Both the position numbers and the translations under genes were made by a program. The notes under the pieces were generated by a model. That model had not been told where the DNA came from, ran no database searches, and saw only the letters and a program-made list of their open reading frames with translations. Of a stretch of 64,000 nt of DNA, positions 17,933-58,916 are shown piece after piece (position 1 is the first letter of the stretch; every line of letters starts with the position of its first letter). This DNA is from Vicinamibacterales bacterium (GTDB taxonomy: Bacteria; Acidobacteriota; Vicinamibacteria; Vicinamibacterales; UBA8438): NCBI GenBank assembly GCA_965262925.1, contig CBDHGC010000003.1, positions 1,551,907-1,615,906 of the forward strand, read 5' to 3'.

Positions 17933-20014
17933 ATGCGCAGACTGCACCGTGGATTCGTCGTCGTACTCGTGGCCGGAATCGTCGCCCTGACGGGCAGCCT
18001 GCAGGGACAGGAAGTGCCGGAACGCGGCAGCGGCTATCCCGCCGCGGACTGGCCGTTCGCCGGCGGGGACTGGACGAGCTCCCGCCACTCGACGCTCGCC
18101 GGCATCTCGACGGAGACCATCGACCGGCTGGGCGCGTCCTGGGTGACGCGGCTTCCGGGCGGCGTGTCGTCGCGGGCGACGCCGGTGGTGGACGACGGCA
18201 TCCTCTACCTGACGGGTGGGGCCAACGTGTTCGCCATCGACGGCCGGACCGGCGAAACGGTCTGGCGCTGGCAGCCGGGAAGCTCTGCCGCCGAGGTGCA
18301 GCGGGTGCCGTCGTGGCAGGGGGTCGGCCTCGGCGATGAGCTGGCCTTCGTCGGGCTGGGGAGCGCGGAGGTGGCAGCGCTGCGGAAGGACACCGGCGAG
18401 CTGGTCTGGGTGCAGACGGTCGGCAGCGATCCGCCGCAGGCCGGCGAATCGGTGACCACGGCCCCGATGCACGCGCGCGGCAAGGTGTTCGTCGGCATCG
18501 CGAACGGCGACAGCGGCGGGCAGGGGCGCGTCGTCGCCCTGGACGCGGCGACCGGCGAGCGGCTCTGGACGTTCTTCGTCGTGCCGCGGCCCGGGGAGCC
18601 CGGCCACGAGACCTGGCCGCAGGACTCGGAGATCTGGCGCCTCGGCGGGGGTGGCGTCTGGCTCGTGGGTGCGGTCGACCCGGACCTGGGGATGGTCTAC
18701 TTCGTCACCGGCAACCCGGTCCCGATGTACGGCGGCGAGATCCGCGCCGGCGACAACCTGTTCACCGCGTCGGTGATTGCCCTCGACATGGAGACCGGGG
18801 AGCGGCGCTGGCATTACCAGGTGGTCCGGCACGACATCTGGGACGCCGACATCGCCACGCCGCTGCTGCTCTACGAGACCGAGATGGACGGTCGCACCCG
18901 CAAGGCGGTGGCCGCGATGCGGGCGGACGGCTACCTGTTCCTGTTCGACCGGGAGACCGGCGAGCCGATCGTGCCGATAGAGGAGCGGCCGGTGCCGCAG
19001 GACGAGTACCTGCTCACCGCGCCGACCCAGCCCTTCCCGGCCGGTGAGAGCATCCTGCCCTCGTGCTCGTTCTGGCGCGACCGGGTGCCGCCCCCGTTCG
19101 AGCTCAACTGCAGCTCGTACACCCCGCCGTCGCTGGACCGGTACGACGTCGTGGCGCCGGGCGCGCCGATTCCGATGGTGCGGGTCACGCCGATGTCGTT
19201 CAGTCCGCAGACCGGCTACATCTACGCGCAGGGGCGGGCGCACGTCGGCCGCGCGTTCCGCTTCGACGACCCGTGGATCTCGGACAACCGCGGCAGCGGC
19301 TACGTCCGGCTCACGCTCCCGGAGTCGACAGGCATTCTCGCCGCCGTCGACGGGCGGACCGGCGAGGTCGTCTGGAAGAACGAGTTCCGCGGGGCGCGGC
19401 TCGCCACCAGTGGTCCGCTGACGACCGCGGGCGGATTGATGTTCTGGGGCTCGGCGGACGGCCGGATCGAGGCCTACGACGCCGGCACCGGCGAGCGGCT
19501 GTGGGGATTCCAGGCAGGCCCGCCCGGGGTGCGGCTGCGGCCCGGACCGGCTGCCTCGTATGCGATCGACGGCGAGCAGTTCGTCTCCATCGCGGTCGGC
19601 GGCGAGCTCTGGGCGTTCGCCCTCGACGGCGACGTGCCGGCGCGTCCGGCGGCGGAGGAGCCGCTGGACGACCTGGTGCGCTGGATCGGCCCTCCGCCGC
19701 GCGCGACCGCCGCCATCGAGACCGCGACGCTGGTCGAGAATCCCATCGCCTGGTCGGTGGGCGGGCGGCGCAACGCGATCAACGAGCACGCTTTTAACCC
19801 GGTGCGGGCGCTCGTCGCCGCCGGCACGCGCGTACGGTTCGTCAACAACGGCGAGATGTCCCACACCATCGCGGCGCGGGACGGGAGCTGGAGCATGGAT
19901 ACGCTGGCCCCGGCGATGATGGGCTACGTCTCCTTCGACGAGCCGGGCACGTTTCTGTACCACTGCACGGACCATCCGTGGGCGATCGGCGAGATCACCG
20001 TCCAGGAGCCGTAG
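17933..20014 (+). CDS. PQQ-dependent dehydrogenase-type beta-propeller fused to a C-terminal cupredoxin-like domain
   Basis: 693 aa with a signal peptide. Propeller motifs: ATPVVDDGILYLTGGANVFAIDGRTGETVWRW, DNLFTASVIALDMETGERRWHYQVVRHDIWD, GRIEAYDAGTGERLWGF. The last ~100 aa read ..RVRFVNNGEMSHTIAARDG..GTFLYHCTDHPWAIGEITV (cupredoxin His...Cys-x2-His pattern). Confidence 0.82.
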   Translation: MRRLHRGFVVVLVAGIVALTGSLQGQEVPERGSGYPAADWPFAGGDWTSSRHSTLAGISTETIDRLGASWVTRLPGGVSSRATPVVDDGILYLTGGANVFAIDGRTGETVWRWQPGSSAAEVQRVPSWQGVGLGDELAFVGLGSAEVAALRKDTGELVWVQTVGSDPPQAGESVTTAPMHARGKVFVGIANGDSGGQGRVVALDAATGERLWTFFVVPRPGEPGHETWPQDSEIWRLGGGGVWLVGAVDPDLGMVYFVTGNPVPMYGGEIRAGDNLFTASVIALDMETGERRWHYQVVRHDIWDADIATPLLLYETEMDGRTRKAVAAMRADGYLFLFDRETGEPIVPIEERPVPQDEYLLTAPTQPFPAGESILPSCSFWRDRVPPPFELNCSSYTPPSLDRYDVVAPGAPIPMVRVTPMSFSPQTGYIYAQGRAHVGRAFRFDDPWISDNRGSGYVRLTLPESTGILAAVDGRTGEVVWKNEFRGARLATSGPLTTAGGLMFWGSADGRIEAYDAGTGERLWGFQAGPPGVRLRPGPAASYAIDGEQFVSIAVGGELWAFALDGDVPARPAAEEPLDDLVRWIGPPPRATAAIETATLVENPIAWSVGGRRNAINEHAFNPVRALVAAGTRVRFVNNGEMSHTIAARDGSWSMDTLAPAMMGYVSFDEPGTFLYHCTDHPWAIGEITVQEP

Positions 20015-20048: not shown

Positions 20049-21383
20049 ATGAGTCGATACACCTGCGCGCTGTTGCTCGTCGTGGTCCTGTGCGCGCCCG
20101 CCGCCGCCCAGGATCGATGGCCGCAGTTCCGGGGCCCGGGCGCCCGAGGCGTCTCGGAGGCCGCTGGACTGCCGACCCGCTGGAGCGCCACCGAGAACGT
20201 CGCCTGGGTCGCCGACCTGCCGGGCCTCGGCTGGAGCTCGCCGGTCGTCTGGGACGACACCGTCTACGTCACGACCGTCGTCAGCGCCGGGCCGGTCGAA
20301 GAACCGCTGGGCGGTCTCTATCGCGGGCGCGAAACGTGGACCCCCTCGACGGCGGAACACCGGTGGATCGTCCACGCGCTGGACGTCGGCACCGGAGCCG
20401 TGCGGTGGGAGCGCGAGGTGCATCGCGGCGCGCCGGCCGGCGGCTACCACATGAAGAACAGCCTGGCGACCGAGACGCCGGTCACCGACGGCGACTCGCT
20501 GTTCGTCTACTTCGGCAACCTCGGCATCTTCAGTCTCGACACGACGGACGGCCGGTTGCGCTGGTCGCGAGACGTCGAGCCCGCGGCCACCCGGCTGGGG
20601 TGGGGCACCGCCGCGTCGCCGGTGCTGCACGACGGCCGCCTCTACATGGTGAACGACAACGACGATCAGTCGTATCTGCTCGCGCTGAGCGCGGAGACCG
20701 GCAACGAGATCTGGCGCATCCCGCGGGACGAAGGCACCAACTGGTCGACCCCCTTCGTCTGGGAGAACGAGCAGAGGACCGAGATCGTCACCACCGGGAC
20801 CGACCGCGTGCGCTCCTACGACCTCGACGGCGACCTGCTGTGGGAGCTCGCCGGCATGTCGTCCATCACCGTTCCCACGCCCTTCGCCGAGTTCGGCCTG
20901 CTCTATCTCAGCTCGGGGTATCTGGGCGACCAGCAGCGCCCCGTCTACGCCATCCGCCCCGGCGCCAGCGGCGACATCTCGCTCCGCGGCTCGGAGACGG
21001 CCAACCGGTTCATCGCGTGGTCGCAGCCGCAGGCCGCACCCTACAACCCTTCGCAGATTCTCTACGGCGACGTGCTGTACACGCTCCTCGACCGGGGGTT
21101 CTTCACCGCCCACGACGCGCGTACCGGCGAGGAGATCTACTCCCGGCGGCGGATCGCGGTCGGGGCCGCGTTCACCGCATCGCCCTGGGCCTACGACGAC
21201 AAGATCTTCGCGCTGAGCGAGGACGGCGACGCCTACGTGATCCGCGCCGGCCGGACGTTCGAGGTCATCGGCCGAAATCCGCTCGACGAGTTCACGATGG
21301 CCACGCCGGCCATCGCCCAGGGCAGCCTGTTCATCCGGACGCGGTCGAAGCTCTACCGGATTGCCGAGGCCGCGGCTCCCTGA
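20049..21383 (+). CDS. PQQ-like/BamB-like beta-propeller repeat protein, exported
   Basis: Start at MSRYTCALLLVVVLCAPAAAQD. Repeated blades: SSPVVWDDTVYV, ALDVGTGAVRWE, SLDTTDGRLRWS, ALSAETGNEIWR, AHDARTGEEIY. Confidence 0.8.
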   Translation: MSRYTCALLLVVVLCAPAAAQDRWPQFRGPGARGVSEAAGLPTRWSATENVAWVADLPGLGWSSPVVWDDTVYVTTVVSAGPVEEPLGGLYRGRETWTPSTAEHRWIVHALDVGTGAVRWEREVHRGAPAGGYHMKNSLATETPVTDGDSLFVYFGNLGIFSLDTTDGRLRWSRDVEPAATRLGWGTAASPVLHDGRLYMVNDNDDQSYLLALSAETGNEIWRIPRDEGTNWSTPFVWENEQRTEIVTTGTDRVRSYDLDGDLLWELAGMSSITVPTPFAEFGLLYLSSGYLGDQQRPVYAIRPGASGDISLRGSETANRFIAWSQPQAAPYNPSQILYGDVLYTLLDRGFFTAHDARTGEEIYSRRRIAVGAAFTASPWAYDDKIFALSEDGDAYVIRAGRTFEVIGRNPLDEFTMATPAIAQGSLFIRTRSKLYRIAEAAAP

Positions 21384-21415
21384 GCCGCCGGTAACCGCTC
21401 GACGCGGGCGTCCCC
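21381..21415. repeat. possible degenerate third copy of the junction repeat
   Basis: TGAGCCGCCGGTAACCGCTCGACGCGGGCGTCCCC aligns with TGAGCCG..CCGGT..ACCGCTCGTCGGCGGGTGCCC of copy A if ~14 nt are deleted. It again starts with the stop codon of the upstream ORF. The match is weak in a GC-rich background. Confidence 0.35.
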
Positions 21416-21509
21416 CATGCGCCGCATCTCGTCGGCGGTGAACTCCAGTCGGCGGGGTCCGTGGGAATGGTCGGCGGCTCTCCGGCCCCGACGACCGCAC
21501 CGCGCCCCC

Positions 21510-21800
21510 TCAAGGCAGCGTGTAGGTCAGGAGCGTCTTGCCCGCCGCCACCGCGACGTACTGCTTGCCGTCCTTTCCCACGTAGGTGATCGGGTTGGCG
21601 CCGCTGATCATCTGCTCGGTCTCGACGCTCCACAGCTCGCGCCCGGTCTTCGTCTCGTAGGCGCGGAACCGTCGATCGCTGGCGCCCCCGATGAAGAGCA
21701 CGCGTCCCGCGGTGGAGGTCGGCCAGCCCTTCTGCGAGTTGGGGGCGCCGGTCAGCAGGCCGGGGGGTGCGCCCTCGACCGTGCCGAACGGGATCTGCCG
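21510..21800 (-). pseudogene. C-terminal fragment of a PQQ-dependent dehydrogenase
   Basis: ..AGRVLFIGGASDRRFRAYETKTGRELWSVETEQMISGANPITYVGKDGKQYVAVAAGKTLLTYTLP* parallels the last blade of 29884..31860 (GDLIFFGEDSGAFAALDAHSGEPLWHVQV..MTYMVGGRQYVAIAS..FALP*). No propeller body lies upstream. Confidence 0.7.
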
Positions 21801-21848
21801 GCCGCAGCGCTTCGCCACCGACGCGCTGATGGCGCGCGACGGGCATCC

Positions 21849-22107
21849 TACGAGCGGGCCGCCTTTAGCGGCAAGCGCATCGCCGTGGTAGGAGCCGGGC
21901 CCGCCGGGCTGGCCTGCGCCCATCGACTGGCGCTGAAGGGACACGCCGTTATCCTGTTCGATGCGCGCGCCAAGGCGGGGGGCCTCAACGAGTTCGGCAT
22001 CGCCAGCTACAAGACCGTCGACCGTTTAGCGGAGCGCGAGCTCGAGTGGCTCCTCGGCATCGGCGGCATCACCGTGGAGCTGGGGAGGCGCCTGGGCGAG
22101 GACCTGC
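21849..22107 (+). pseudogene. fragment of a PreT/GltD-like NAD(P)-flavoprotein (dinucleotide-binding segment only)
   Basis: YERAAFSGKRIAVVGAGPAGLACAHRLALKGHAVILFDARAKAGGLNEFGIASYKTV..LLGIGGITVELGRRLGEDL. The frame then switches abruptly at ~22105. Confidence 0.65.
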
Positions 22108-22440
22108 GAGGAGCAGGCCTGGCAGCGCATCCTGCGGCAGGTCGAGGACACCGGCGCCGACGGCGTCGAGCTGAACTTCGGCTGCCCCCACGGCATGCAG
22201 GAGCGCGGGATGGGCTCGGCGGTGGGCCAGGTGCCGGAGTACCTCGAGATGGTCACGCGCTGGGTGAAGGCGGCGACCCGGATGCCGGTCATCGTCAAGC
22301 TCACGCCGAACGTCGCCGACATCCGCTACGCGGCCCGCGCGTCCCGGGCGGGAGGCGCCGACGCGGTGAGCCTGATCAACACGGTGAACTCCATCGCGTC
22401 GGTCAACCTCGACACGTTCAGTCCCGAGCCCTCCATCGAC
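22108..22440 (+). pseudogene. fragment of a PreA/dihydroorotate-dehydrogenase-like TIM-barrel flavoprotein
   Basis: EEQAWQRILRQVEDTGADGVELNFGCPHGMQERGMGSAVGQVPEYLEMVTRWVKAATRMPVIVKLTPNVADIRYAARASRAGGADAVSLINTVNSIASVNLDTFSPEPSID. It is fused directly to the PreT-like fragment with both ends missing. Confidence 0.65.
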
Positions 22441-22556
22441 CGCTCGGCCGCCTGCCGAACTGCATCGGTGATGGCGTCAGCCTGTTCGGTCGTGAGCTTG
22501 GTGGCGACCAGTGCGCGAGCGATGGCGTCGGTGTCGAACCCAGAGGCATGGTACCA
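22441..22556 (-). pseudogene. 5' fragment of a DUF1640-like gene
   Basis: The minus strand translates ..GFDTDAIARALVATKLTTEQADAITDAVRQAAE. The intact paralog 48665..48916 begins MTTLAFDTHRAVKALRHAGFSDEQAEAVTEQIS. The fragment is truncated at 22441. Confidence 0.55.
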
Positions 22557-22633
22557 CGGTGTCTCACGCCGGCAGCACAGTCTGGCCCGTGGGATTCGTC
22601 AACGGTACGAGGGGGCCAGTGTAGGGGGCGGGA

Positions 22634-23433
22634 ATGGCGGACCTCACGAACACGGAGAAGCGGCAGTTTGAGCGATTACTTGGGATGGGCAGCGGCTACG
22701 TGCTCGACTTCTCAAACAGGACGTTTGCGGAGTTCGTGATCGATGCAACGGACCGCGACCCGTACGACGCCAAGTACGACCACGGCAGCTCAAAAGCAAA
22801 CCGGCTGCGTGGCTTTTGGGCGTCGAGCCGAACCGGGTAGTCGGCAAACTGATGGGTGAGATGCTTGAGTACTTGCGGACGACCGTCGGAGGCGACGAAG
22901 ATCCTACCCTGCGCGCGCAGTGCGAGCGGACGGTGGCGCGCCTGCTTCAAGAGAATCCCGTCCAGGAGCTTGACGCACTTGTCGCGATCGGGAACGAGCG
23001 CGACTTCGAGGTCGTGGCTAAAGCGGTCCGGGACGCCATCGACCGGGACGAACTCGAGGCGAGTCTCGACCGGCTGCACACCTTCATCATCAAGTATGTG
23101 CGGTTATTGTGTGAGACGCGGGGCATCTCCGTTGACCGCGACAAGCCGCTTCACAGCCTGTTCGGCGAGTACGTGAAGCACCTGAAGCAAGGCGGACATC
23201 TCGAATCCGAGATGACGGCGCGTATCCTGAAGTCGAGCATCTCGACACTGGAGGCGTTCAACGATGTCCGGAACAACCGGAGCCTCGCGCACGACAACCC
23301 GATCCTCGGCTATGAGGAGGCATTGCTGATCTTCAACCACATCGCAGCCTCAGTACGGTTCTTGCGGAGCATACATATGGCTACGCAGGAACGCGAGCAT
23401 GCTGCTACGGCTGACGACGATGTTCCATTTTGA
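22634..23433 (+). pseudogene. abortive-infection-type protein (N-terminal Abi-associated domain + Abi_C/HEPN-like C-terminus), single frameshift near 22815
   Basis: ORF 22634..22840 reads ..TEKRQFERLLGMGSGYVLDFSNRTFAEFV..SSKANRLRGFW. ORF 22816..23433 reads GVEPNRVVGKLMGEMLEYL... and later FNDVRNNRSLAHDN (an R-x4-6-H HEPN-type motif). The two join if one G is added to the GGG run at 22818-22820. G+C is visibly lower than in the neighbours. Confidence 0.7.
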
Positions 23434-23448
23434 TTTGGCTTATCCCGC

Positions 23449-23852
23449 TCAGATCGCCACCGGCGTCCCCTCGATCATCGGCATGTCGGGGATCGGAAGT
23501 GCCACTGCATGGCCAGCCGGTCGATGTTGTCCCGATTGATCTGGTCCAGCGGACTGTGGCGGTTCCCCGTGTAGCTGCCATGGTAGGACGGCCAGTCGAC
23601 GTACGGTTCGATCGCCGCCTCGCGGTAGGCGTCGCCCTCGCGGCGGAGCAGCACGATGTCGCCCCCGGACGTCCGGAACTGCGCGTCGAACCCGCCTTCG
23701 TTGAGGACGGTGCCTTTCGGCGCATCCCCCCGGAGAGCGGGATGGAGGCGGCGCGCGGGCGCGGCGCCCGCGGGTCGCTCGCCGCCGTCGGCGCCGCGGC
23801 GGCCAGTTCCCTGAGGGATACGACGCTGGTCGCCGCGAACGTCCTCTTGACA
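23449..23852 (-). pseudogene. N-terminal fragment of a cytochrome c-PQQ dehydrogenase paralog, truncated at both ends and frameshifted
   Basis: ..SLRELAAAAPTAASDPRAPRPRAASIPLSGG..GTVLNEGGFDAQFRTSGGDIVLLRREGDAYREAAIEPYVDWPSYHGSYTGNRHSPLDQINRDNIDRLAMQWHF / PIPDMPMIEGTPVAI* matches residues ~85-235 of 29884..31860. The upstream end abuts the IS1634-like element. Confidence 0.8.
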
Positions 23853-25829
23853 TCTAGACGGAAGTTTCAGAGCGAATCGCGCGGAAGTCATTCTCATTGA
23901 GTCAGTTAGCGATTCCGTCGGGGTGTCGGTGGTGGCTACACTCGGGTCGTTACCCCCAGTAGCTCGAAGCAGCGCTGCTGCAGCGGTGTGGGGTCCGTCT
24001 GCAACTGAAAGGTGACGCCGCTTTCGGCGACCTGCATCGTGTTCGCCGTCAGCGTTCCCAGGTCGGTGAGCAGCGTCCGGAAGCTGTGCACCGGCAAGTC
24101 GTCGTCGGTCCGTTTGCAGCCCACCTTGGCCAGGGCCGCCGGTGAGCGGCGAGCGGCGGCGACCACCGAAGGCCGCTGCTGCTCGGCCGCCGCCGGGTCG
24201 TGGTCGTCGAACAGCAGCGGCGCCAGCGCGTGGCGCATGTGCCACTCGACGTAGTAGGCCAGCATGCACAGCAGGACATGCGCCCGCACCCGGTCCGCCC
24301 GCCGGTGGTGGATCGGCCGCACCTTCAGGTCCACCGACTTCAGGCTCCGAAACGCCCGCTCCACCTTCGACAGGTCCTTGTAGGCCCGCACCGTCTGCGC
24401 TGCATCGAACTGCTCCGGCTCGACGTTGGAGCGGACGATGTACAGCCCGTCGAGCTGCTCCTCGGCCGCGATCTTGTCTTCGTCCCGGCGATAAGTGAAC
24501 GTGTCGTCGGTGATCGTGGTGACGAAATGCTTGGCCATCTTGTGCCGGTTGATCACCTTCCCGACGCGCATACCGATTTCGGCTGCTCCGCGTAGCAGCC
24601 GGTTCTGGCGCGTTGTCGCTGCCGCGATGGGCGCCAGGTCCTTCTCGGTTGCCGCCAGCAGTTCCTGCCGCTTGCGCTGCCGCTCGGCGGCCAGCAACGG
24701 ATTGCGGCACACGACCAGCCGCTCGCCGGGGAACAGCTCGCTGGTGACCTCGGCCAGGTCCCGCTCGTCGAACAGCGACGGCGTCACCGTGCCGGCGGCC
24801 AGCAGTTTCCGAATCGTCGGCGCCCGCAGCGTGGTGATCCAGCGCAGCCCGTCGACGCCCGCCAGGTCCTCGCGGATCCGCGCTGCGGTCAGCATGCCGC
24901 GGTCGCCCACCAGCACCACCCGCTGCAAGCCAAAGCGGGTGCGGAGCTTGTCCACCTGGCAGGCCACCGTCTTCGGGTCGCTCGTCGAGCCCTCGAAGAC
25001 CTCCACCGCGACCGGACAGCCCGCGGCCGTGCACAACAGGCCGAAGACGATCTGCAAGGTGCCCTGCTTGCCGTCGCGGCTGTGCCCGCGCTGCGCCAAC
25101 GGGCAGTGGGTCCCCTCCAGGTAGCTGGAGGTCAAGTCATAGAGCACCAGGGTGTGTTCCTGCAGGTGCTGCTTGGCCAGGCGTTGCTCGATGGCCGCCT
25201 GCCGCTCCACCAGCCAGTCCATCGCCGCATACAGTTCGTGCTGATCGACGTCGCCGAGCCCAAGCGTCTCGCCCAGGGTGGAGACGGCGCTCTCGGGGGC
25301 CAGGCCGCGCGCGGTGGCCAGCTTCGACTGCGCGTCGATGACGCGGGCGACGATCAGGGCGAGGACGAGGTCGCGGAGGCGACCGGCGTTACGGGCGATC
25401 AGCGTGTGCAGTCCGATCCGCTTGAGGGTGCCGAGCACCGCGGCGATGTGGCCGTGGGGCAGGCTGCGCACGCAGGTGAAGGCGTCTTCGGGGTTGACGA
25501 GTCGCTCACCGCGGAGGACGCGGCGCAGCGTTTCGATGGCGGCGGTCGGCAGCTTGGAGAGGTTGGCGAGGGTGCGCTTCTTGACGTGGCCGCCGGCGCG
25601 GTAGGACTCGCGCAGGAGGACGGCTGGGGGGGAGGAGCGATTGGGCACGCTCTCGATATACATGGTCACTAATTATACCGAAGTAACTCAATACATAAAA
25701 AGAAAACAACGCGCATTACGCGCCTATTACATGGCTACATATCGCCGTATGCACCAAGCCGAAAAGCTCCAAAAAGCCTTTAGACCCTATGGTTTAGGGC
25801 TAAATCGCCCGCTGAAACTTCCGTCTAGA
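23853..25829 (-). mobile_element. IS1634-family insertion sequence (1,977 bp)
   Basis: 18-bp perfect terminal inverted repeats: TCTAGACGGAAGTTTCAG at 23853-23870 and its complement at 25812-25829. It has a single transposase ORF and an AT-rich right interior (25670-25810). No flanking direct repeat is seen. Confidence 0.85.
23936..25669 (-). CDS. IS1634-family (IS4-superfamily DDE) transposase
   Basis: 577 aa: MTMYIESVPNRSSPPAVLLRESYRAGGHVKKRTLANLSKLP.., VLYDLTSSYLEG, VLVGDRGM, YKDLSKVERAFRSLKS. Confidence 0.88.
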   Translation of the reverse strand: MTMYIESVPNRSSPPAVLLRESYRAGGHVKKRTLANLSKLPTAAIETLRRVLRGERLVNPEDAFTCVRSLPHGHIAAVLGTLKRIGLHTLIARNAGRLRDLVLALIVARVIDAQSKLATARGLAPESAVSTLGETLGLGDVDQHELYAAMDWLVERQAAIEQRLAKQHLQEHTLVLYDLTSSYLEGTHCPLAQRGHSRDGKQGTLQIVFGLLCTAAGCPVAVEVFEGSTSDPKTVACQVDKLRTRFGLQRVVLVGDRGMLTAARIREDLAGVDGLRWITTLRAPTIRKLLAAGTVTPSLFDERDLAEVTSELFPGERLVVCRNPLLAAERQRKRQELLAATEKDLAPIAAATTRQNRLLRGAAEIGMRVGKVINRHKMAKHFVTTITDDTFTYRRDEDKIAAEEQLDGLYIVRSNVEPEQFDAAQTVRAYKDLSKVERAFRSLKSVDLKVRPIHHRRADRVRAHVLLCMLAYYVEWHMRHALAPLLFDDHDPAAAEQQRPSVVAAARRSPAALAKVGCKRTDDDLPVHSFRTLLTDLGTLTANTMQVAESGVTFQLQTDPTPLQQRCFELLGVTTRV

Positions 25830-25902
25830 GGAGCTATGGGCTATCGTTCCTCTAGATGGCTAGAAGACTCTGTGCCGAAGGGCTGAAAGACGCCGCAAGG
25901 AG

Positions 25903-26244
25903 GTGACCGTGACCGCTCGCCCCCAGCGGGACGACCTTCGAGGCTCGCTCGATTTGGTGATCTTGAAAACGCTCTCGCTCGCGCCGATGCACGGTTGGGG
26001 CATTGGCCAACGGATTCGGCAGATGTCCTCGGGGGTGCTGGAAGTCAACCAGGGCTCGCTGTATCCGGCCCTCCAGCGCCTCGAGAAGCAGGGGCTGATC
26101 CGCAGCGACTGGGGAACCACCGACAACAACCGGCGGGCGCGCTACTACCGGCTGACGCCGTCGGGCCGGCGAGCGCTCGGCGAGGAGATCGACAGTTGGA
26201 AGCGCTTCGCCGACGGTCTCGGCGCGGTGTTGCGGAGCACCTGA
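25903..26244 (+). CDS. PadR-family transcriptional regulator
   Basis: 113 aa, GTG start with AAGGAGG 6 nt upstream. Motifs: LDLVILKTLSLAPMHGWGIGQRI..NQGSLYPALQRLEKQGLIRS..RRARYYRLT. Confidence 0.9.
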   Translation: MTVTARPQRDDLRGSLDLVILKTLSLAPMHGWGIGQRIRQMSSGVLEVNQGSLYPALQRLEKQGLIRSDWGTTDNNRRARYYRLTPSGRRALGEEIDSWKRFADGLGAVLRST

Positions 26245-28943
26245 TGCGCTGGGTAGACGCCGCCCGCGCCCGTCTCCGCCTTCTGCTGTTCGGTGAAGAG
26301 GTCGAGCAGCGGATGGACGAGGAGTTCCGCTTTCATCTCGACATGGAAACGGAGCGATTGGTGCGCGAGGCGGGAGTCGACCCGCGGGAAGCGCGTCGAC
26401 GGGCGCGCGCCGCCTTCGGCGGCGTCGAAGCGCACAAGGACGCGGTGCGTGACGGCCGCGGCGGTTGGGCCTGGCTGTCGGGACTCCAGCTCGGGATCGG
26501 TCGCGACGTCCGCGACGGCATTCGGTCCCTGGCCAAGCGCCCGGCGTTCACGGCGGTTGCCATTCTCTCGCTGGCGCTCGGCATCGGGGCCAACACCGCC
26601 ATCTTCAGCCTCGTCAACGCGGTGATCCTTCGCGATTCGCCGATCGAGCGGCCGGAAGAGGTCGTCAACCTCTATCTGCACCAGGCGTCGTTCGAGTTCG
26701 GCACGTTGTCCTACCCCGATTTCGAGGATGTCCGCGACGGCACCGCCGAGGTGTTCAGCGACATCGCGGCCTCCCATTTCGTGCCGCTGACGATCGACCG
26801 CGGGGAGGGTGGAGGCGTCGGCCTGGCGCCCGCGGAGGCGGTCACCGGCAGCTACTTCCCGATGCTGGGAATCGAGGCGGCGGTCGGACGCACCCTGCTG
26901 CCGAGCGACGACGTCTCGCGCGGCGGGCATCCGGTCGTGATGCTCGACTATCGATACTGGCAGAGCGCATTCGCCGGCGACCCGGGCGTCGTCGGACGCG
27001 AGATGCGCGTCGGCGGCCGCGCGTACACAGTGATCGGGGTGGGGCCGCCCGACTTCGCGGGCACCGTCCGCGGCCTTACGCCGACGTTCTACGTCCCGTA
27101 CATGATGGCCGAGGAGCTGAACGGATTCCCCGTGTTCGACGATCGGGGCTACACCGCGCTCTTCGTCAAGGCGCGTCTCCGTCCGGGCGTCACCCTGCCC
27201 CAGGCCGAGGTGGCCGTCGGGGCGGTAGCCGCGCAGCTCACCCGGGACCGCATGGCGAACTGGGATCCGGCCGGGCAGTTCGTGCTCCTCCCGCTCACCG
27301 ATGTACTGCTCTTCCCGCCGATGGACGTCTTCATCCGGGCGGCGGCGTGGCTGTTGATGGTGGTCGTCGGGCTGGTGCTGCTGCTGGCGTGCACCAACCT
27401 CGCCAGCTTCCTGCTCGCGCGCGCGCTCGACCGGCGCAAGGAGATCGCGCTGCGCCTGGCGTTGGGCGCGTCGCGCGGGTCGCTCGTGCGGCGGCTGCTG
27501 ACCGAGACGACGCTGCTGAGCCTGCTGGCCGGGGGCGCCGGTGTCGGGCTGGCGGTCTGGCTGCTCGACCTGCTGGTGACCGCGGACCTCCCGCTGCCGA
27601 CGCCGGTCACGCTCGATCTCCGTCTCGACGGGAGCGTCCTCGCGTTTACGTTCGGCGTCTCGGTCGTGGCCGGCGCCCTGCTCGGTCTGGTGCCGGCGCT
27701 GCAGAGCACCCGGCCGGACGTGGCCGGCGCCCTCCGGAGCGAGGGCGCCGGGGGCGGCCAACCCGGTCAGCTCCGGTGGCGCAACGCGCTGGTCGTCACG
27801 CAACTGACGATCTCGCTGGTGCTGCTGGTCGGCGCCGGGTTGTTCCTCCGCAGCTTTCAGCGGGTCCAGTCGGTCGACCCGGGCTTCGGCCGCGAGCCGA
27901 CCGCCCTGATGACCTTCCTGACGCCGGCGACCCGGTTCACGCCCGACGAGGCGCGCGTCTACACGCGGCACCTCCTGGATCGCTTCCGGGCGCTCCCCGG
28001 CGTCGAGGCGGTCGGCGCCATCAGCAACCTGCATCTGAACCCGCTCAGCCAGAGCTCGAGCGACTTCAACGTCAACGGGTTCGAGCCGCCGACCGACCAC
28101 GGTGCCTTTGTCGCGGACCGGGCCGAGGTCGAGCCGGGGTTCTTCGCGGCGGCAGGCATCGAGATCGTCCGCGGGCGCAACTTCAACGACGCCGACCGGC
28201 CGGACACCCGGCCCGTGGTCATCGTCAGTGAAGCGATGGCCCGGCGCTTCTGGACGGACGGCGACGCGGTCGGCCGGCTCGTCCGGCGGCGCGACGACGC
28301 TCCCCCCTGGCTCGTCGTCGGTGTGGCGAGCGACGCGAAGGTGAGGAGGCTCGGCGAGTCGCCCCGCAACATGATCTATCTCCCGTACTCGCAACGGTTC
28401 ACGCCGTCGCTGACGGTCGTGGCGAGGACGTCCATCGACCCGGAGCGGACCGCACTCGCACTTCTGACCGCCGGTCGCGAGCTGGATCCCGACCTGCGGG
28501 TCCTCGAGACGAAGACGATGGACCGCCACCTGGCGCTGATGCGGCTGCCCCAGCAGCTCTCCGCCTTCGTCCTGTCGGCGTTCGGGGTTCTGGCGCTGGC
28601 GCTCGCCGCGGTCGGCCTCTACGGAGTGGTCAGCTACGGCGTTGCCCGGCGGACGCGCGAGATCGGCATCCGGAAGGCGCTCGGCGCCGACGGCCCCCGC
28701 GTCGTGCGGCTGCTCGTCGCGGGTGGCCTCAAGCTGGTGGCCCTCGGCGGCGCGCTCGGGCTGGCGCTCGCCGTCGTCGCGACCCGCCTGCTGGGCGGGC
28801 TGCTGTTCGAGGTCGACGCGCTCGACCCGCTGACGTTCGTCGGCGTGCCGCTGGTCCTCGGCGCCGCGGCCCTCCTCGCAGCCTACCTGCCGGCCCGCCG
28901 CGCCAGCCGGGTCAGTCCCGTCGTGGCGCTGCGGACCGACTGA
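26244..28943 (+). CDS. duplicated FtsX-type ABC permease (ADOP family)
   Basis: The ATG overlaps the PadR stop (TGATG). The N-terminal leader MRWVDAARARLRLLLFGEEVEQRMDEEFRFHLDMETERL is typical of the family. Two MacB-like periplasmic domains and two FtsX 4-TM modules follow. Confidence 0.88.
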   Translation: MRWVDAARARLRLLLFGEEVEQRMDEEFRFHLDMETERLVREAGVDPREARRRARAAFGGVEAHKDAVRDGRGGWAWLSGLQLGIGRDVRDGIRSLAKRPAFTAVAILSLALGIGANTAIFSLVNAVILRDSPIERPEEVVNLYLHQASFEFGTLSYPDFEDVRDGTAEVFSDIAASHFVPLTIDRGEGGGVGLAPAEAVTGSYFPMLGIEAAVGRTLLPSDDVSRGGHPVVMLDYRYWQSAFAGDPGVVGREMRVGGRAYTVIGVGPPDFAGTVRGLTPTFYVPYMMAEELNGFPVFDDRGYTALFVKARLRPGVTLPQAEVAVGAVAAQLTRDRMANWDPAGQFVLLPLTDVLLFPPMDVFIRAAAWLLMVVVGLVLLLACTNLASFLLARALDRRKEIALRLALGASRGSLVRRLLTETTLLSLLAGGAGVGLAVWLLDLLVTADLPLPTPVTLDLRLDGSVLAFTFGVSVVAGALLGLVPALQSTRPDVAGALRSEGAGGGQPGQLRWRNALVVTQLTISLVLLVGAGLFLRSFQRVQSVDPGFGREPTALMTFLTPATRFTPDEARVYTRHLLDRFRALPGVEAVGAISNLHLNPLSQSSSDFNVNGFEPPTDHGAFVADRAEVEPGFFAAAGIEIVRGRNFNDADRPDTRPVVIVSEAMARRFWTDGDAVGRLVRRRDDAPPWLVVGVASDAKVRRLGESPRNMIYLPYSQRFTPSLTVVARTSIDPERTALALLTAGRELDPDLRVLETKTMDRHLALMRLPQQLSAFVLSAFGVLALALAAVGLYGVVSYGVARRTREIGIRKALGADGPRVVRLLVAGGLKLVALGGALGLALAVVATRLLGGLLFEVDALDPLTFVGVPLVLGAAALLAAYLPARRASRVSPVVALRTD

Positions 28944-29031: not shown

Positions 29032-29443
29032 ATGCAGGTCTTCATCAGTCATTCCCATTCGGACTCGCCGCTGGCCGCCCGGGTGTCCAGGGCGCTCCGG
29101 AAGGCTGGGCTGCAGGTGTGGGATCCGGAAGTCCACCTCCTCCCGGGCGACAACTGGCCGGCCCAGGTGGGCCGCCGCTCTCGAAGAGTCCGACGCCATG
29201 GTCGTTCTCTTGACGCCCCACTCGATCAGTTCGCCGCACGTCAAGGCTGACATGACGTACGCGCTGGGTTCGAAGAGCTACAGAAACCGACTGATTCCTG
29301 TCGCAGTCGGTGGCCGGGAGCAGCTTCCGAAGGGCGAGATTCCGTGGATCGTCCGAAAGCTGCACTGGGTGGATCTGCCGAACCCGGAGAGCGCCGATCC
29401 CGAGGTCAAGCCCATCGCCGAGGCGCTCCTCAGCCAGGCCTGA
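29032..29443 (+). pseudogene. TIR-domain-only protein 1 (frameshift near 29072)
   Basis: MQVFISHSHSDSPLAARVSRALRKAGLQVWDPEVHLLPGDNWPAQVG (ORF 29023..29250) continues in another frame as AALEESDAMVVLLTPHSISSPHVKADMTYALG.. (ORF 29198..29443). This is the TIR_2-type pattern (FISHS...D / vvvllSp.s..S). Confidence 0.72.
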
Positions 29444-29466
29444 GCCCCCGTAGGTGGCGAGTCCAA

Positions 29467-29876
29467 GTGCCGACCGAGGTTTTCGTCTCGCATTCGCATG
29501 TAGATCGGGAGTTCGCTGAGCGGCTGGTCGGCGTTCTGCGCCGCCATCAGATTCCAGTGTGGTACAGCGAAACCGACATCCAGGGCGCCCAGCAGTGGCA
29601 CGACGAGATCGGCAGAGCGCTGCAGCGCTGCGATTGGTTTATCGTCGTTCTCTAGCCCCCGAGTCTGTGGCTTCCATGTGGGTGAAGAGAGAACTTATGT
29701 ACGCCCTCGAGCAGGACCGGTTCGAGGGGCGCATCGCTCCGCTGATGCATCGAGCGTGTGACTACGACCCGTTGTCCTGGACCCTGTCCCAGTTGCAGAT
29801 GATCGATTTTACCCGCAGTTTCGACGACGGATGCCGCGATCTGCTTCGAATCTGGGACGTGCAATACACCCCGTAG
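29467..29876 (+). pseudogene. TIR-domain-only protein 2 (frameshift near 29652)
   Basis: GTG 29467. PTEVFVSHSHVDREFAERLVGVLRRHQIPVWYSETDIQGAQQWHDEIGRALQRCDWFIVVL* then continues in another frame as APESVASMWVKRELMYALEQDRFEGRIAPLM... It retains the S-x-W-V-x-x-E motif. Confidence 0.72.
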
Positions 29877-29883
29877 CCTGAGG

Positions 29884-31860
29884 TCACGGCAGCGCGAACG
29901 CCCAGAACCCGAGCCGGGACGCGATGGCGACATACTGCCGGCCGCCGACCATGTAGGTCATCGGCGACGCCTTCCAGTCCTGATTGACCTGCACGTGCCA
30001 GAGCGGCTCGCCGCTGTGAGCGTCGAGCGCCGCGAACGCGCCGCTGTCCTCGCCGAAGAAGATCAGGTCGCCGTCGGTCGAGATCACGCCCGAGTAGGTC
30101 TGCGCCTTTCCGGTCTGCGGGTAGCTCCACACCGTGCGCCCGGTCTGGATGTCGAGCGCGCGGATGAACTTCTGGTTCGGCGAGCCGTCCGCCAGGCGAA
30201 CGGTGCCGCCCAGCCAGCTCCGGCCGCGTTGCCAGTCCTGATCGTTCTTCGTGTAGGTCATGCACGACTCGTGGGCCAGCAGGTAGAAGAGCTTCGTTCC
30301 CGGGTGGTAGCTCGTCGCCCACCAGTTGGTGGCGCCGCGGATGGCCGGACAGACGTCCGTGCCCTCCTCGGTCGGGTCGGTGCCGGGGAGGACGACAGGC
30401 CGTCCGGAGTCGTCGATGCCCTCGGCCCAGGTCTGGTTCACGAACGGCTCGCCGAGCAGGAACCGGCCGTCCGTCCGGTCGAGCACGTAGAAGAAGCCGT
30501 TGCGGTTGCCCTGTACGAGCAGCTTGCGCGGGCGGCCCCGGAACTCCTCGTCGATCAGCAGCAGTGGTTCCTGCGCGTCCCAGTCGTGGGTGTCGTGCGG
30601 CGTGAACTGGAAGTACCAGACCATCTCGCCGGTTCCCGGCCGGAGCGCCACGACCGAGTTCGTGTACAGGTTGTCGCCCGGACGCCGCTCGCCGTTCAGG
30701 TCCGGGCAGGGGTTGCCGGTCGCCCAGTAGAGCAGATCCAGCTCGGCGTCGTAGCTCCCCGTCAGCCAAGTGGCGCCGCAACCCCGGCGCAGCACCTCCG
30801 GATCGCCCCACGTCTCCGACCCCGGCTCGTCCGGCTCGGGAATCGTCCAGAAGCGCCACGCGCGTTCTCCGGTCTCGGCGTGGTACGCGTCCAGGAAGCC
30901 GCGCAGCCCGGTGTCCCCCGCGCTGATGCCGGCGACGACGAGGTCGCCCACCACCAGCGGCGCCGCCACCGCGCCGTAGTGCTCGCGGTAGTCGTCCATC
31001 TCGGTGTCCCAGACCAGCTCGCCGGTGAAGCGGTCGAGGGCGATGACGTGGGCGTGGTCGGTGACCGTGAACACCAGGTCGCCGCGCACGGCGACGCCGC
31101 GGTTGAGTCCGATGGCCGGGTCGCCGACGAGTCCCTCGGTGCGCGGCTGCGAGTAGCGCCAGATCTCGCGCCCCGTCGTCGCGTCGAGTGCGTAGACTTG
31201 GTTCACCGCGGTGACGTACATGACGCCGGCAATCACCACCGGGGTGCCCTCGATCATCGGCATGTCGGGGATCGGATAGAACCACTGCATCGCCAGGTCC
31301 TTCACGTTCCCCCGGTGGATCTGGTCGAGCGGGCTGTGGCGGTTCCCGGTGTCGCTGCCGTGGTAGGACGGCCAGTCGACGTACGGCTCCACCGCCGCCT
31401 CGCGGTGCGCGCCGCCGTCCCGCCGGAACAGGCGGACATCGCCGTCCGCGGTCCGGAACTGCGCGTCGAACCCGCTCTCATTGAGGATGGTGCCGTCAAG
31501 TGTGCCGCCCCCGGCGAGCTGAATGGATCCGGCCCGTGGCCGCGGCGCGCGGGGATCGCGGGCGGCCGGCGCCACGGCGGCGGCCAGTTCCTTCAGGTAC
31601 GCGATGAGCGGCGTGAGCTCCTCGTCGGGGATCTCGAAGCGTGGCATGCCCCGCGACGGCACGCCTTCCCGAATGATCCGCGCCAACCGGTCGGGGCCGC
31701 TCGCATGCAGCGTTGGCAGAATCGAACCGGCCCGGTCGCTCCCTGCGGCGTCGCCGCCGTGGCACAGGGAGCAACGGGTCTGGTACGACTCCTCGCCGTC
31801 GGCCGCGGCGAAACTCGGCATCGTGAGCAGGAGAACGGCAACGAGAGCTGAAATTCTCAT
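29884..31860 (-). CDS. quinohemoprotein-like dehydrogenase: N-terminal class-I cytochrome c domain + PQQ beta-propeller
   Basis: 658 aa counted from the internal ATG 31860 of the long ORF 29884..33210. Signal MRISALVAVLLLTMPSFAAA. Heme motif CSLCH with downstream GMPRF. Propeller motifs: TPVVIAGVMYVTAVNQVYALDATTGREIWRY, DNLYTNSVVALRPGTGEMVWYFQFTPHDTHDWD. Confidence 0.85.
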   Translation of the reverse strand: MRISALVAVLLLTMPSFAAADGEESYQTRCSLCHGGDAAGSDRAGSILPTLHASGPDRLARIIREGVPSRGMPRFEIPDEELTPLIAYLKELAAAVAPAARDPRAPRPRAGSIQLAGGGTLDGTILNESGFDAQFRTADGDVRLFRRDGGAHREAAVEPYVDWPSYHGSDTGNRHSPLDQIHRGNVKDLAMQWFYPIPDMPMIEGTPVVIAGVMYVTAVNQVYALDATTGREIWRYSQPRTEGLVGDPAIGLNRGVAVRGDLVFTVTDHAHVIALDRFTGELVWDTEMDDYREHYGAVAAPLVVGDLVVAGISAGDTGLRGFLDAYHAETGERAWRFWTIPEPDEPGSETWGDPEVLRRGCGATWLTGSYDAELDLLYWATGNPCPDLNGERRPGDNLYTNSVVALRPGTGEMVWYFQFTPHDTHDWDAQEPLLLIDEEFRGRPRKLLVQGNRNGFFYVLDRTDGRFLLGEPFVNQTWAEGIDDSGRPVVLPGTDPTEEGTDVCPAIRGATNWWATSYHPGTKLFYLLAHESCMTYTKNDQDWQRGRSWLGGTVRLADGSPNQKFIRALDIQTGRTVWSYPQTGKAQTYSGVISTDGDLIFFGEDSGAFAALDAHSGEPLWHVQVNQDWKASPMTYMVGGRQYVAIASRLGFWAFALP

Positions 31861-48269: not shown

Positions 48270-48565
48270 TCACGGGCTCCAATCCTGCTCCACGTCGAAG
48301 GCCACGACGTTGCGCGCCTCGCGGCTGAGCGCGACACCCATCAGGTGGATCGCGCGCCCGGACGCACGGTGCTTCTCCGCGTAGTCCCGTTCCCTGAGTT
48401 GCGCCAGGGCCGACCCGGTCCCCGCCTGCTCCAAAGTGGGTGCCGGCCTCGTCCGCGAGTCGGCGGGCGTAACCGGTCTTGTCGACGGATGTCCTCGTCG
48501 GGGCTTTCTCGTCGGCGCCACGCCGACGAGAGAACGGTTGCCTCCCACACCCGGTGGGCACGGCG
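48270..48565 (-). pseudogene. internally deleted remnant of an AAA-ATPase_like + PD-(D/E)XK (PDDEXK_9-type) gene
   Basis: One frame gives the N-terminal ..SVDKTGYARRLADEAGTHF (compare YVDKTAYARRLADDAGKHYF in 57354..58916). A second frame gives the C-terminal GSALAQLRERDYAEKHRASGRAIHLMGVALSREARNVVAFDVEQ (compare AGAALAQLQARGYADKYRAPGRTVHLIGVEISAESRDVTTFDTV). About 1.25 kb of interior is missing. Confidence 0.7.
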
Positions 48566-48664: not shown

Positions 48665-48916
48665 TCAGCCGACCAGGAAGTCGAGCGCCTTGACGAGTCC
48701 GACGCCGGCGGCGACGGTCCCGTACAACTTCAGCGTGAGGCGCAACTCGAGCTTTTCCATGTCAGCTCGGACCAGCGCGATGTCGCTCTTCGTCGCGACG
48801 TTCTCCCCGATGGCAACGCTGATCTGCTCGGTGACCGCTTCAGCCTGCTCGTCACTGAAACCGGCGTGGCGCAACGCCTTGACGGCCCTGTGCGTGTCGA
48901 AGGCGAGCGTAGTCAT
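48665..48916 (-). CDS. DUF1640-like small coiled-coil membrane protein
   Basis: 83 aa from ATG 48916: MTTLAFDTHRAVKALRHAGFSDEQAEAVTEQIS..ADMEKLELRLTLKLYGTVAAGVGLVKALDFLVG. Confidence 0.7.
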   Translation of the reverse strand: MTTLAFDTHRAVKALRHAGFSDEQAEAVTEQISVAIGENVATKSDIALVRADMEKLELRLTLKLYGTVAAGVGLVKALDFLVG

Positions 48917-49012
48917 CAATGTGCTTCCAGATTCTGACCGCTGATTCCGACGGTAGCAGGATGCCCGCACCGCGGCAAGTGTGACCTCGCCGCGGCACGG
49001 GAGCTCCAGTTC

Positions 49013-57353: not shown

Positions 57354-58916
57354 TCATGGTGTGGGGCAGGTGACGGTGTCGAATGTCGTGACGTCCCGCG
57401 ACTCCGCGCTGATCTCCACGCCGATCAGGTGCACGGTGCGGCCCGGCGCGCGGTACTTGTCCGCGTAGCCGCGTGCCTGCAACTGCGCCAGCGCAGCGCC
57501 TGCCTCCGAGCGCTCCGCTATTTTGAACTCGAACAGGTAGGCATCTTCTCCCAGACGCACCGCCAGATCCAGCCGGCCGCGGCTGGTGGCGTCCTCCACC
57601 GCCACCCCATCGAGCGACGCCTGGAACCAGGCGTAGAACACGCTCGACCAGTAACCCTCGTAGCGGGCGATCTCGTTTCGCCGGTGCCAGTCGTGCGGGA
57701 TGCCCGCCAGCAACCGCCGGCACAGCGCCTCCAGGCCCGTCCAGTCCTTCGCCGCCAGTAGCCGGCGGAGCGCGCCGCCATCTCCCGCCGGCCGCCGCCA
57801 GTTCGGCGCCAGCGCGTCCAGCAGGCTCTCGTTCAGTCCCTGCCGGACCTCGCGGTTCGGATAGCGCAGGCGGTACCGAGGAGAGCCGTCCAGGTCCTCC
57901 GCTTCCGCGATCGTCAGGTAGCCGGTCTGGAACAGCAGCGCCTCGGGGGCGATGCGGTCCACGTCGAAGGACGACAGCAGTGCCTCGCTGGCGCGAACGG
58001 TATCGAGGTCCGGGGCGGAGAAGCCGCGCCGGAGGAGCGTATCGATCAGGAACCGCGGCGTCGCCGTTTCGAACCAGTGCGCCTTGAACGCGCGGCTGCG
58101 GAACAGCATGAGGATGCCGAAGGGGTTGTAGACCTTGTCCGTCCCCAGCCAGTTGTAGCCGTTGTACCAGGTGCGGATCTGATCGCGATCCAGGCCCGGC
58201 AGTTCCGGTGCGAACACCGTGTCCAGGTCCTTCTCGGTGTAGCCGCAGATCGTCGAGTACGCCGGGTCCAGGGTAATGTCGATGAGGTTGTTCAAGTCGG
58301 AGAACAGGTTGACCTTCGAGAACTTGCTCACCCCGGTGAGGAAGGTGAGCTCCACGTGGGCGTCGCAGTCCTTGATCGTGCCGTACAGTCCGCGCAGGTC
58401 GTCACGGTTCGCCGTCGCGATATCCGGTTCGTCCAGAGCGTCCAGAATCGGTTTGTCGTACTCGTCCACCAGCACGACCACCCGCCGGCCTGTCTGGCGG
58501 TGCAGCGCAGCCAGGAGGCGGGCGAAGCGCCTCGGCACGGTCGCGCCCTCGGCAACGGGCGCCTCGGTCTCGCGTTCGATGTCGGCCAACTGTTCCGCCA
58601 CGCTCGCCAGCAGCTCGTCCCGCCTCCTGAAGTTGCCGGCCGCGAAGCTCAGGCGCACGACAGGATGGCGCGCAGACCAGTCCCAACCGTCGTGAACGGT
58701 CAGGTCCCGGAACAGCGGCTCGTTCCCCTCGTACAGCTCCTTGAGAGTGTCCACGAACAGGCTCTTGCCGAAGCGCCGCGGGCGCGACAGGAAATAGTGC
58801 TTGCCGGCGTCGTCCGCGAGCCGGCGGGCGTAGGCTGTCTTGTCGACGTAGTAGTAGCCCTCCTCCCGGATCTGGCGGAAGGTCTGGATGCCGACGGGGA
58901 GCCTGCGCCTGTCCAC
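57354..58916 (-). CDS. AAA-ATPase_like domain + PD-(D/E)XK nuclease (PDDEXK_9-type) protein
   Basis: 520 aa. The N-terminus is MDRRRLPVGIQTFRQIREEGYYYVDKTAYARRLADDAGKHYFLSRPRRFGKSLFVDTL. The C-terminal part reads ..GRLDLAVRLGEDAYLFEFKIA. Confidence 0.82.
   Translation of the reverse strand: MDRRRLPVGIQTFRQIREEGYYYVDKTAYARRLADDAGKHYFLSRPRRFGKSLFVDTLKELYEGNEPLFRDLTVHDGWDWSARHPVVRLSFAAGNFRRRDELLASVAEQLADIERETEAPVAEGATVPRRFARLLAALHRQTGRRVVVLVDEYDKPILDALDEPDIATANRDDLRGLYGTIKDCDAHVELTFLTGVSKFSKVNLFSDLNNLIDITLDPAYSTICGYTEKDLDTVFAPELPGLDRDQIRTWYNGYNWLGTDKVYNPFGILMLFRSRAFKAHWFETATPRFLIDTLLRRGFSAPDLDTVRASEALLSSFDVDRIAPEALLFQTGYLTIAEAEDLDGSPRYRLRYPNREVRQGLNESLLDALAPNWRRPAGDGGALRRLLAAKDWTGLEALCRRLLAGIPHDWHRRNEIARYEGYWSSVFYAWFQASLDGVAVEDATSRGRLDLAVRLGEDAYLFEFKIAERSEAGAALAQLQARGYADKYRAPGRTVHLIGVEISAESRDVTTFDTVTCPTP

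Follow-up and report, generated by a model that had tools for sequence, protein, structure and literature searches.

A 2.4-kb mosaic of gene fragments in the genome of an uncultured Vicinamibacterales bacterium (Acidobacteriota) represents, with a probability that we place at roughly 0.9, the advanced deletional decay of a normal gene cluster in one lineage of this order. The mosaic occupies positions 21381-23852 of the stretch of DNA analysed here (the window), a 64,000-nucleotide segment of contig CBDHGC010000003.1. It comprises remnants of a PQQ-dependent dehydrogenase, of the preT and preA genes of reductive pyrimidine catabolism, of a DUF1640-like gene and of a cytochrome c-PQQ dehydrogenase, together with an abortive-infection (Abi) family gene. 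A preliminary description made from the sequence alone had regarded the pieces as fragments of unrelated genes, gathered either in a recombination 'junkyard' beside an insertion sequence (IS) or by a chimeric assembly. The observation is confirmed and its interpretation is partly supported: the mosaic is a genuine genomic feature, but at least four of the fragments are former neighbours in the same order and orientation as their counterparts in related genomes (intact genes in five species, and a sister-lineage locus for DUF1640). The process is ordinary gene decay of a kind already known, with no new element or mechanism.

The components of the mosaic are given below. L-numbers designate the loci that were compared from other assemblies or species, lengths of proteins are in amino acids (aa), and F and J denote fragments and junctions.

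21384..21509, no strand: spacer from the stop codon of the 452-aa PQQ_2 gene to that of the PQQ dehydrogenase remnant, with which this gene is convergent; aligns with the same spacer in L007, L011, L014, L017 and L019
21510..21798, minus strand: F1, last 96 codons and stop of a 642-aa PQQ-dependent dehydrogenase, the 5' 546 codons gone; Pfam PQQ profile 532-595/595
21792..21799 (~21798), no strand: J1, deletion junction between antisense PQQ dehydrogenase and PreT; blastn alignments of the parent genes overlap here
21799..22106, plus strand: F2, preT codons ~157-262/486 (end of the Fe-S domain and first Rossmann fold); NAD_binding_8, 1-nt deletion at 21846
22107..22441, plus strand: F3, preA codons 113-224/436 (dihydropyrimidine dehydrogenase subunit, TIM-barrel part); DHO_dh profile 109-202/291
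22442..22568, minus strand: F4, 5' end of a DUF1640-like gene (approximately 38 codons) with the adjoining upstream sequence, in-frame start codon lost; weak CCDC90-like/DUF1640 match
22634..23433, plus strand: Abi_C-domain (abortive-infection family) gene; Pfam Abi_C E = 3e-14, lower GC of ~60%
23453..23852, minus strand: F6, approximately residues 77-171 of a cytochrome c-PQQ dehydrogenase formerly divergent upstream of PadR, both ends deleted; PQQ profile 1-36, two internal frameshifts

Authenticity of the mosaic

The GC content of the window is ~70% and falls to 58-63% across 22500-23550. Within each piece the GC content at third codon positions (GC3) is 0.9-1.0 and its phase shifts at the joins, which indicates that the pieces are not chance open reading frames (ORFs) but recent relics of real genes. 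The junctions are abrupt, as noted in the preliminary description. All six pieces matched their proposed families in profile searches, the DUF1640 piece only weakly (E = 0.002, under the gathering score). The positions given for the junctions at 22106/22107, 22441/22442, ~23452 and 23853 also stood, but the one placed at ~21840 lies at ~21798, since the 1-nt deletion at 21846 within the preT remnant had been mistaken for it.

The data are metagenomic and some contigs carrying the locus reach only 2-3x coverage, as would suit a chimeric or mis-joined assembly in which the junctions were assembler artefacts. However, four independent metagenome assemblies from ENA were found by exact-protein look-ups to contain this locus, on conspecific contigs of 1.16 Mb at 55x (L002) and 176 kb at 25x (L003) and on others at 3x (L001/L004 and L005), with an identity to the window over the mosaic of at least 99.86%. 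In a sister lineage, represented by a 3.6-Mb contig at 39x (L097) and a contig at 21x (L098), both left-hand junctions, J1 and J2, are base for base as in the window. The junctions are thus reproduced in L001-L005 and in L097/L098, of which L002, L003, L097 and L098 are from different samples, and the frameshifted and intact products of the Abi gene are each found on at least 5 contigs. As near-identical independent assemblies carry the mosaic and two sister-lineage assemblies have J1 and J2 in common, the mosaic is no misassembly, and the probability of an artefact is close to nil. A search for hidden RNA genes over 20500-26500 gave no Rfam match at E <= 0.1, and among repeats at the junctions only the inverted repeat and target duplication of the IS were meaningful.

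Intact counterparts in related genomes

Relatives were retrieved with the neighbouring 452-aa protein, which returned many Vicinamibacterales genomes, and one genome per species was scanned. In five species (L008 and L010-L013), whose 452-aa protein is 94-95% identical to that of the window, the 452-aa gene is followed by an intact PQQ dehydrogenase (minus strand), a dihydropyrimidinase, preT and preA, all arranged and oriented like the fragments of the window. The intact PQQ dehydrogenase of the relatives, a 642-aa protein, has a signal peptide and lacks a cytochrome c domain. Gene names in the relatives rest on NCBIfam scores, which lie above the cut-offs for the dihydropyrimidinase (TIGR02033, 597 bits) and for PreA of L010 (NF006183, 692 bits). 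In reductive pyrimidine catabolism, dihydropyrimidinase operates together with the NAD-dependent dihydropyrimidine dehydrogenase PreT/PreA (YeiT/YeiA in E. coli), and the cluster of the relatives resembles the genes of this pathway in having co-oriented dihydropyrimidinase, PreT-like and PreA genes.

In blastn comparisons, the window fragments are 87-96% identical in DNA to the matching parts of the intact genes, and neighbouring alignments either meet end to end or overlap by 4-17 bp. The 3' ends of the orthologues that stand intact at this position in L007, L008 and L010-L013 share 91-94% DNA identity with F1. By tblastn, F2 matches residues 155-176 and 177-262 of L010 PreT in two frames, and its protein identity to the PreT orthologues of relatives is 87-90%. 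The corresponding identity of F3 to PreA orthologues is 92-95% (94% to L010 PreA). The gene from which F4 derives runs on into a longer gene in L097, on the minus strand after preA, and the 986-bp stretch that holds this continuation makes the DUF1640 fragment syntenic as well. Synteny therefore extends from the PQQ dehydrogenase (minus) through preT (plus), preA (plus) and DUF1640 (minus) to the PadR-MacB genes that follow. The comparison with related genomes that the preliminary description had proposed has traced the fragments to syntenic genes, and the junctions are deletion scars, not places where imported pieces were joined. Three of the fragments have intact paralogues within the window, as had been described (17933-20014 and 29887-31824 for the PQQ pieces, 48665-48970 for DUF1640); no paralogue of PreT, PreA or Abi was found there.

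Deletion junctions and the order of events

At J1 the microhomology, GATC(T/G)GCC, is imperfect, and in comparison with L012, L008 and L010 the window lacks ~3.7 kb. The PQQ dehydrogenase lost 546 codons here and preT its first ~156, and the dihydropyrimidinase gene between them disappeared altogether. J2 (22106/22107) has a 4-bp CCTG microhomology with ~1.03 kb gone, and at J3 (22441/22442) 986 bp is gone. L097, identical to the window at J1, retains these 986 bp together with L098, and the retained segment spans preA from codon 225 to its stop (open, with the ferredoxin domain), followed by a small ORF and, on the minus strand, the main part of the DUF1640-like gene. Because L097 and L098 carry J1 and J2 yet keep this segment, J3 is a younger deletion and the decay was stepwise; the two loci stand between the ancestral layout and the window. 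The 1-nt deletion at 21846 in the preT remnant is not present in L097 and is thus specific to the window species.

A parallel case is provided by L007, the closest other species, whose DNA identity to the window, ~96.7%, is roughly on a level with that of L097. Its PQQ dehydrogenase is intact, and it has its own deletion between dihydropyrimidinase and preT. At the preT-preA junction, preT extends 21 nt further in L007 than in the window, and preA is 182 nt shorter. The left breakpoint seemed equal in BLAST, and one preT-preA deletion common to both was considered; this was rejected, as the sequences differ on both sides and the deletions are independent. The differing breakpoints imply that the operon decayed independently in two lineages, and the comparison suggests that selection on the operon was relaxed before the window and L007 lineages split. 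Downstream of the decayed operon in L007 lies the gene for a 352-aa protein, a 53%-identical homologue of which is found at 57375-58367 of the window (minus strand), with a second, partial copy of that homologue at 48285-48437.

Coding capacity of the remnants

No complete product can be made from the fragments, which lack start or stop codons or are frameshifted: F1 has lost its 5' part, F2 and F3 are internal segments, and F2 carries one frameshift and F6 two. The window preserves 106 preT codons, 112 preA codons and none of dihydropyrimidinase, so the reductive pyrimidine pathway cannot be encoded at this locus. A functional PreT/PreA enzyme was likewise not found, complete domains being absent and the remaining preT and preA parts lying in different frames.

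Gene callers nevertheless predict ORFs over the fragments, including a 144-aa ORF at 21510-21944 and a 153-aa DHO_dh ORF, and across the mosaic the window and L097 share 98-100% identity. Retention of these ORFs as functional mini-proteins or regulatory RNAs might explain both facts, but is extremely unlikely. The ORFs run over the junctions into the antisense of the neighbouring fragment, there is no Rfam match, the frameshifts of the window are not shared by L097, and parts of the flanking genes are similarly conserved. Moreover, in L003 only, a C-to-T change at 21630 creates a stop codon in the 144-aa ORF over F1, which is consistent with an unconstrained ORF. The high identity to L097 had also made it conceivable that the mosaic had recently swept or been transferred; the sliding identity profile is equally high in parts of the flanking genes and permits no such conclusion.

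Two different PQQ dehydrogenases

The two PQQ pieces had been proposed as the possible ends of a single gene with a replaced middle part, which would make the preT', preA', DUF1640' and Abi segments an inserted cassette. Their arrangement is the one that such an event requires, with both pieces on the minus strand, the N-terminal piece upstream and the C-terminal piece downstream. However, the parent of the C-terminal piece, F1, is the 642-aa dehydrogenase without a cytochrome c domain that is intact at this place in six relatives. The N-terminal piece, F6, follows a cytochrome c domain linker and shares 89.4% DNA identity with the cytochrome c-PQQ gene, near full-length, that L099 carries in divergent orientation beside PadR. 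That F6 comes from a different gene than F1 follows from this L099 gene, and it is consistent with their identities to the same paralogue in the window (29887-31824), to which F6 is 72% identical in protein (80% in DNA) and F1 only 37%. As the genes of the supposed cassette are themselves syntenic neighbours in relatives, descent of the two pieces from a single gene is highly improbable. The extent of the second piece, previously given as residues ~85-235, is corrected to ~77-171 of the paralogue. A protein search gave no close homologue of F6 at full length, its matches being short or split products, and the near full-length L099 gene emerged from genome-context look-ups. Other, smaller remnants of the cytochrome c-PQQ gene occupy the same place in L010, L094 and L100.

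The paralogue at 29887-31824 (minus strand) is an intact 645-aa cytochrome c-PQQ dehydrogenase in the window and is interrupted by a change of W403 to a stop codon (C/T at 30616) in L002, L003 and L005. The haplotype that is free of the IS and has an intact Abi gene thus has this 645-aa gene broken, and the window haplotype is the reverse.

The adjoining insertion sequence

An IS does adjoin the last fragment, as had been observed, its target duplication starting at 23853. The following features make up this part of the locus.

23853..23858, no strand: target-site duplication TCTAGA (6 bp), left copy; defined by the empty site in L002 and an inverted repeat search
23859..25823, minus strand: IS1634-family insertion sequence, 1965 bp; transposase gene 23936-25669, terminal inverted repeats CGGAAGTTTCAG
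25824..25829, no strand: target-site duplication TCTAGA, right copy; compared with the empty site
25830..25908, no strand: rest of the region upstream of PadR, parted from F6 by the IS; contiguous with 23858 in L002, L003 and L005 and homologous to L010 20683-20728

The transposase (577 aa, minus strand) has a DDE_Tnp_1 domain and scores 328.7 bits against NF033559 (cut-off 100, profile 2-482/483). IS1634 elements are 1500-2000 bp long, with C-----YT ends and target duplications of 5-6 bp (De Palmenaer et al. 2008, PMC2266710). The present element agrees with the family in passing the NF033559 cut-off, in its length, in its ends CGGAAGTT, which fit C-----YT, and in a 6-bp direct repeat that is AT-rich relative to the genome. 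It differs from known members in its host, an uncultured Vicinamibacterales bacterium, and in that one copy is visible here. The insertion is polymorphic, being present in L001 and absent from L002, L003 and L005. Alignment to the latter three stops at 23858 and restarts at 25824, and TCTAGA is single in the empty sites. The IS has severed F6 from the ~80 bp that lead on to the PadR gene.

Adjacency to an IS is one of the observations that would favour a recombination junkyard, in which IS activity or repeated illegitimate recombination gathered unrelated fragments from elsewhere. The relatives of the Abi gene in other genomes also lie within IS-rich islands, and some pieces (a preA fragment, Abi and 3' ends of the cytochrome c-PQQ gene) occur in more than one context (L008 and L094). 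Yet the three conspecific assemblies with an empty IS site have an identical mosaic, which makes the IS later than the mosaic and not its cause. The insertion is a simple one with a 6-bp duplication, the window has one IS copy with no IS remnants at the other junctions, and neither a composite transposon nor an IS-mediated rearrangement is found. Since, in addition, four fragments retain the order and orientation of their intact neighbours in related genomes, assembly of the mosaic from elsewhere is very unlikely.

The DUF1640 remnant, the Abi gene and defence-gene turnover

The match of F4 to CCDC90-like/DUF1640 (PF07798) covers positions 1-37 with 18.5 bits, against a gathering cut-off of 33.5, and the longer version of the gene in L097 scores 20 bits. 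The intact 101-aa DUF1640/CCDC90-like gene at 48665-48970 (minus strand) reaches 34.2 bits, just over the cut-off. It was considered as the source of the remnant at 22442-22556 and dismissed, being a distant paralogue that is only ~37% identical.

A homologous remnant of F4 is held by L008. There, three pieces are lined up at 21035-21346, behind a membrane gene with a bactofilin domain: 100 bp with homology to window 29738-29838, a second preA fragment and the DUF1640 5' remnant. This second preA fragment (codons ~349-385) is ~90% identical to all preA genes, including that of L008 itself. An origin of J3 by homologous recombination between preA and such a fragment was rejected on two grounds: the window retains more DUF1640 codons than L008 and its preA ends at codon 224, not ~385, and L097 shows a simple 986-bp deletion.

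The Abi gene scores 51-53 bits against PF14355 (cut-off 24) and has 4057 homologues, the best 120 of which are mostly full-length matches. It is intact, encoding 266 aa, in L002, L003, L005 and L097. The haplotype of the window and L001 differs by a 1-nt deletion at 22821 and two non-synonymous single-nucleotide polymorphisms (SNPs), so that the frameshift noted earlier holds for this haplotype. More distant relatives have no counterpart at this position, and the closest Abi relatives elsewhere adjoin IS elements, integrative elements and defence genes. From its domain, Abi is a predicted phage-defence gene; no PADLOC model matched the protein. In L094 an Abi gene with 92% DNA identity is the last gene of a TIR/BrnT/TmtA-like/helicase cluster, which points to the Abi gene of the window as probably the survivor of a larger defence islet. 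The L094 contig (8.8 kb at 2x, and hence to be read with caution) has the order MacB-TIR-BrnT-TmtA-like-helicase-Abi-(cytochrome c-PQQ 3' fragment)-PadR-like, which is circularly permuted with respect to the window. This order is compatible with tandem duplication or with recombination between two cytochrome c-PQQ copies.

As in defence islands, Abi_C, TIR, HEPN-GmrSD, BrnT/BrnA and TmtA-like/helicase genes vary between the same flanks in close genomes, the flanks here being preA, PadR-MacB and cytochrome c-PQQ dehydrogenase-DAO. Unlike such islands, the window has a lone and inactivated Abi gene with no PADLOC match, and no integrase or att site was identified at this locus. A TIR-domain gene at 29032-29676 of the window is frameshifted, with residues 1-45 and 49-136 in different frames. 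The same gene is intact (136 aa) in L097, L094 and L100, and the intact protein matches SAVED_TIR/ThsB-like PADLOC models. A second TIR-like stretch, 37% identical, lies at 29473-29676. In the sister lineage, an insert between TIR and the full-length cytochrome c-PQQ gene (L097 15145-17723, L098 16556-19134) holds a 153-aa C-terminal fragment and an inverted piece of that gene together with a HEPN/GmrSD_N pair.

At the left end of the locus, the spacer between the 452-aa gene (end at ~11350 in L007-L036) and the convergent PQQ dehydrogenase varies among L007-L036 from ~0 bp (L012) to ~8 kb (L026), and in L014 and L027 it contains partial duplicates of the 452-aa gene. This spacer looks like an insertion hot spot.

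A model of stepwise decay

The proposed ancestor would have had, after the 452-aa PQQ_2 gene, the convergent PQQ dehydrogenase and then the reductive pyrimidine-catabolism operon of dihydropyrimidinase, preT and preA. Further on would have followed a small ORF and the DUF1640 gene (minus strand), the Abi defence gene and a cytochrome c-PQQ dehydrogenase divergent from PadR-MacB. Illegitimate deletions with short or no homology would then have taken most of this cluster. One of ~3.7 kb, from inside the PQQ dehydrogenase to inside preT, formed J1, one of ~1.03 kb from preT into preA formed J2, and one of 986 bp from preA into DUF1640 formed J3. More deletions cut back both ends of the cytochrome c-PQQ gene. 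J1, J2 and the arrangement of Abi and the PQQ remnant predate the split from L097/L098, J3 and the 1-nt deletion in the preT remnant are younger, and the IS1634-family insertion, the 1-nt deletion in Abi and a few SNPs are still polymorphic within the species. Homology, synteny, breakpoints, this sequence of events and the polymorphism are thereby shown directly. The fragments would be functionless leftovers of the bacterial deletion bias. The trigger was presumably the loss of selection on pyrimidine catabolism, and we infer microhomology-mediated illegitimate recombination as the deletion mechanism.

Several observations weigh against this model or limit it. The right half (DUF1640, Abi and F6) is reconstructed less completely than the left: no relative was found in which Abi stands between DUF1640 and cytochrome c-PQQ genes that are both intact, and the DUF1640 assignment of F4 falls under the Pfam threshold. 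At J3 the microhomology is at most 2 bp. The preT remnant shows excess divergence (88.6% identity to relatives, against 93.3% among the relatives themselves), and the preA remnant shows none (95.3% against 95.7%). This is a misfit with simultaneous inactivation and compatible with preT having been hit before preA, although the numbers are small. In addition, L008 has its preA fragment joined to DUF1640 besides an intact preA 3 kb upstream, and in L094 Abi ends a larger defence cluster after MacB-TIR. These two cases imply that duplications or transfers have also acted and that a pure series of deletions is insufficient.

Some of these observations suggest a different emphasis. The L094 order, in which Abi is followed by a cytochrome c-PQQ 3' fragment, the extra 3' fragment by the HEPN-GmrSD cassette in L097 and the second preA fragment in L008 could mark the interval from preA to DAO as a recombination hot spot for defence-gene turnover in this Vicinamibacterales clade. 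Diverged cytochrome c-PQQ copies and 3' fragments would then act as portable homology for duplicating, swapping and losing cassettes (Abi, TIR, HEPN-GmrSD, BrnTA and TmtA-like/helicase), and the mosaic would be collateral damage and not simple neutral decay. We consider this account unlikely, if clearly less so than the other alternatives weighed above.

Deletional decay of the cluster accords with what is known of bacterial pseudogenes, whereby genes that have become dispensable are lost bit by bit, each deletion taking from tens to thousands of bases (Kuo & Ochman 2009, PMC2817411; Kuo & Ochman 2010, PMC2916853; Danneels et al. 2018, PMC6054270). The likeness lies in truncated and frameshifted remnants that keep the ancestral order and in lineages eroded to differing extents. 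The locus differs from those cases in belonging to a free-living soil acidobacterium with a genome of about 6-8 Mb, and not to a host-restricted pathogen or symbiont. Further differences are the presence of three kb-scale deletions within 650 bp and the parallel, independent deletions in a sister species.

The main use of the analysis lies in a corrected annotation: the 144-aa 'PQQ', 153-aa 'DHO_dh' and 140-aa 'PQQ' ORFs are remains of pseudogenes and have no place in a gene count. The locus also offers a clean and unusually well-resolved case of stepwise decay that is associated with microhomology and can be dated, in a soil bacterium that lives freely and has a large genome. Its intermediates survive in sister lineages, and it may serve in teaching or as a benchmark for pseudogene and structural-variant callers on long-read metagenomes. 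For the organism itself, the finding identifies a lineage that is without reductive pyrimidine catabolism at this locus.

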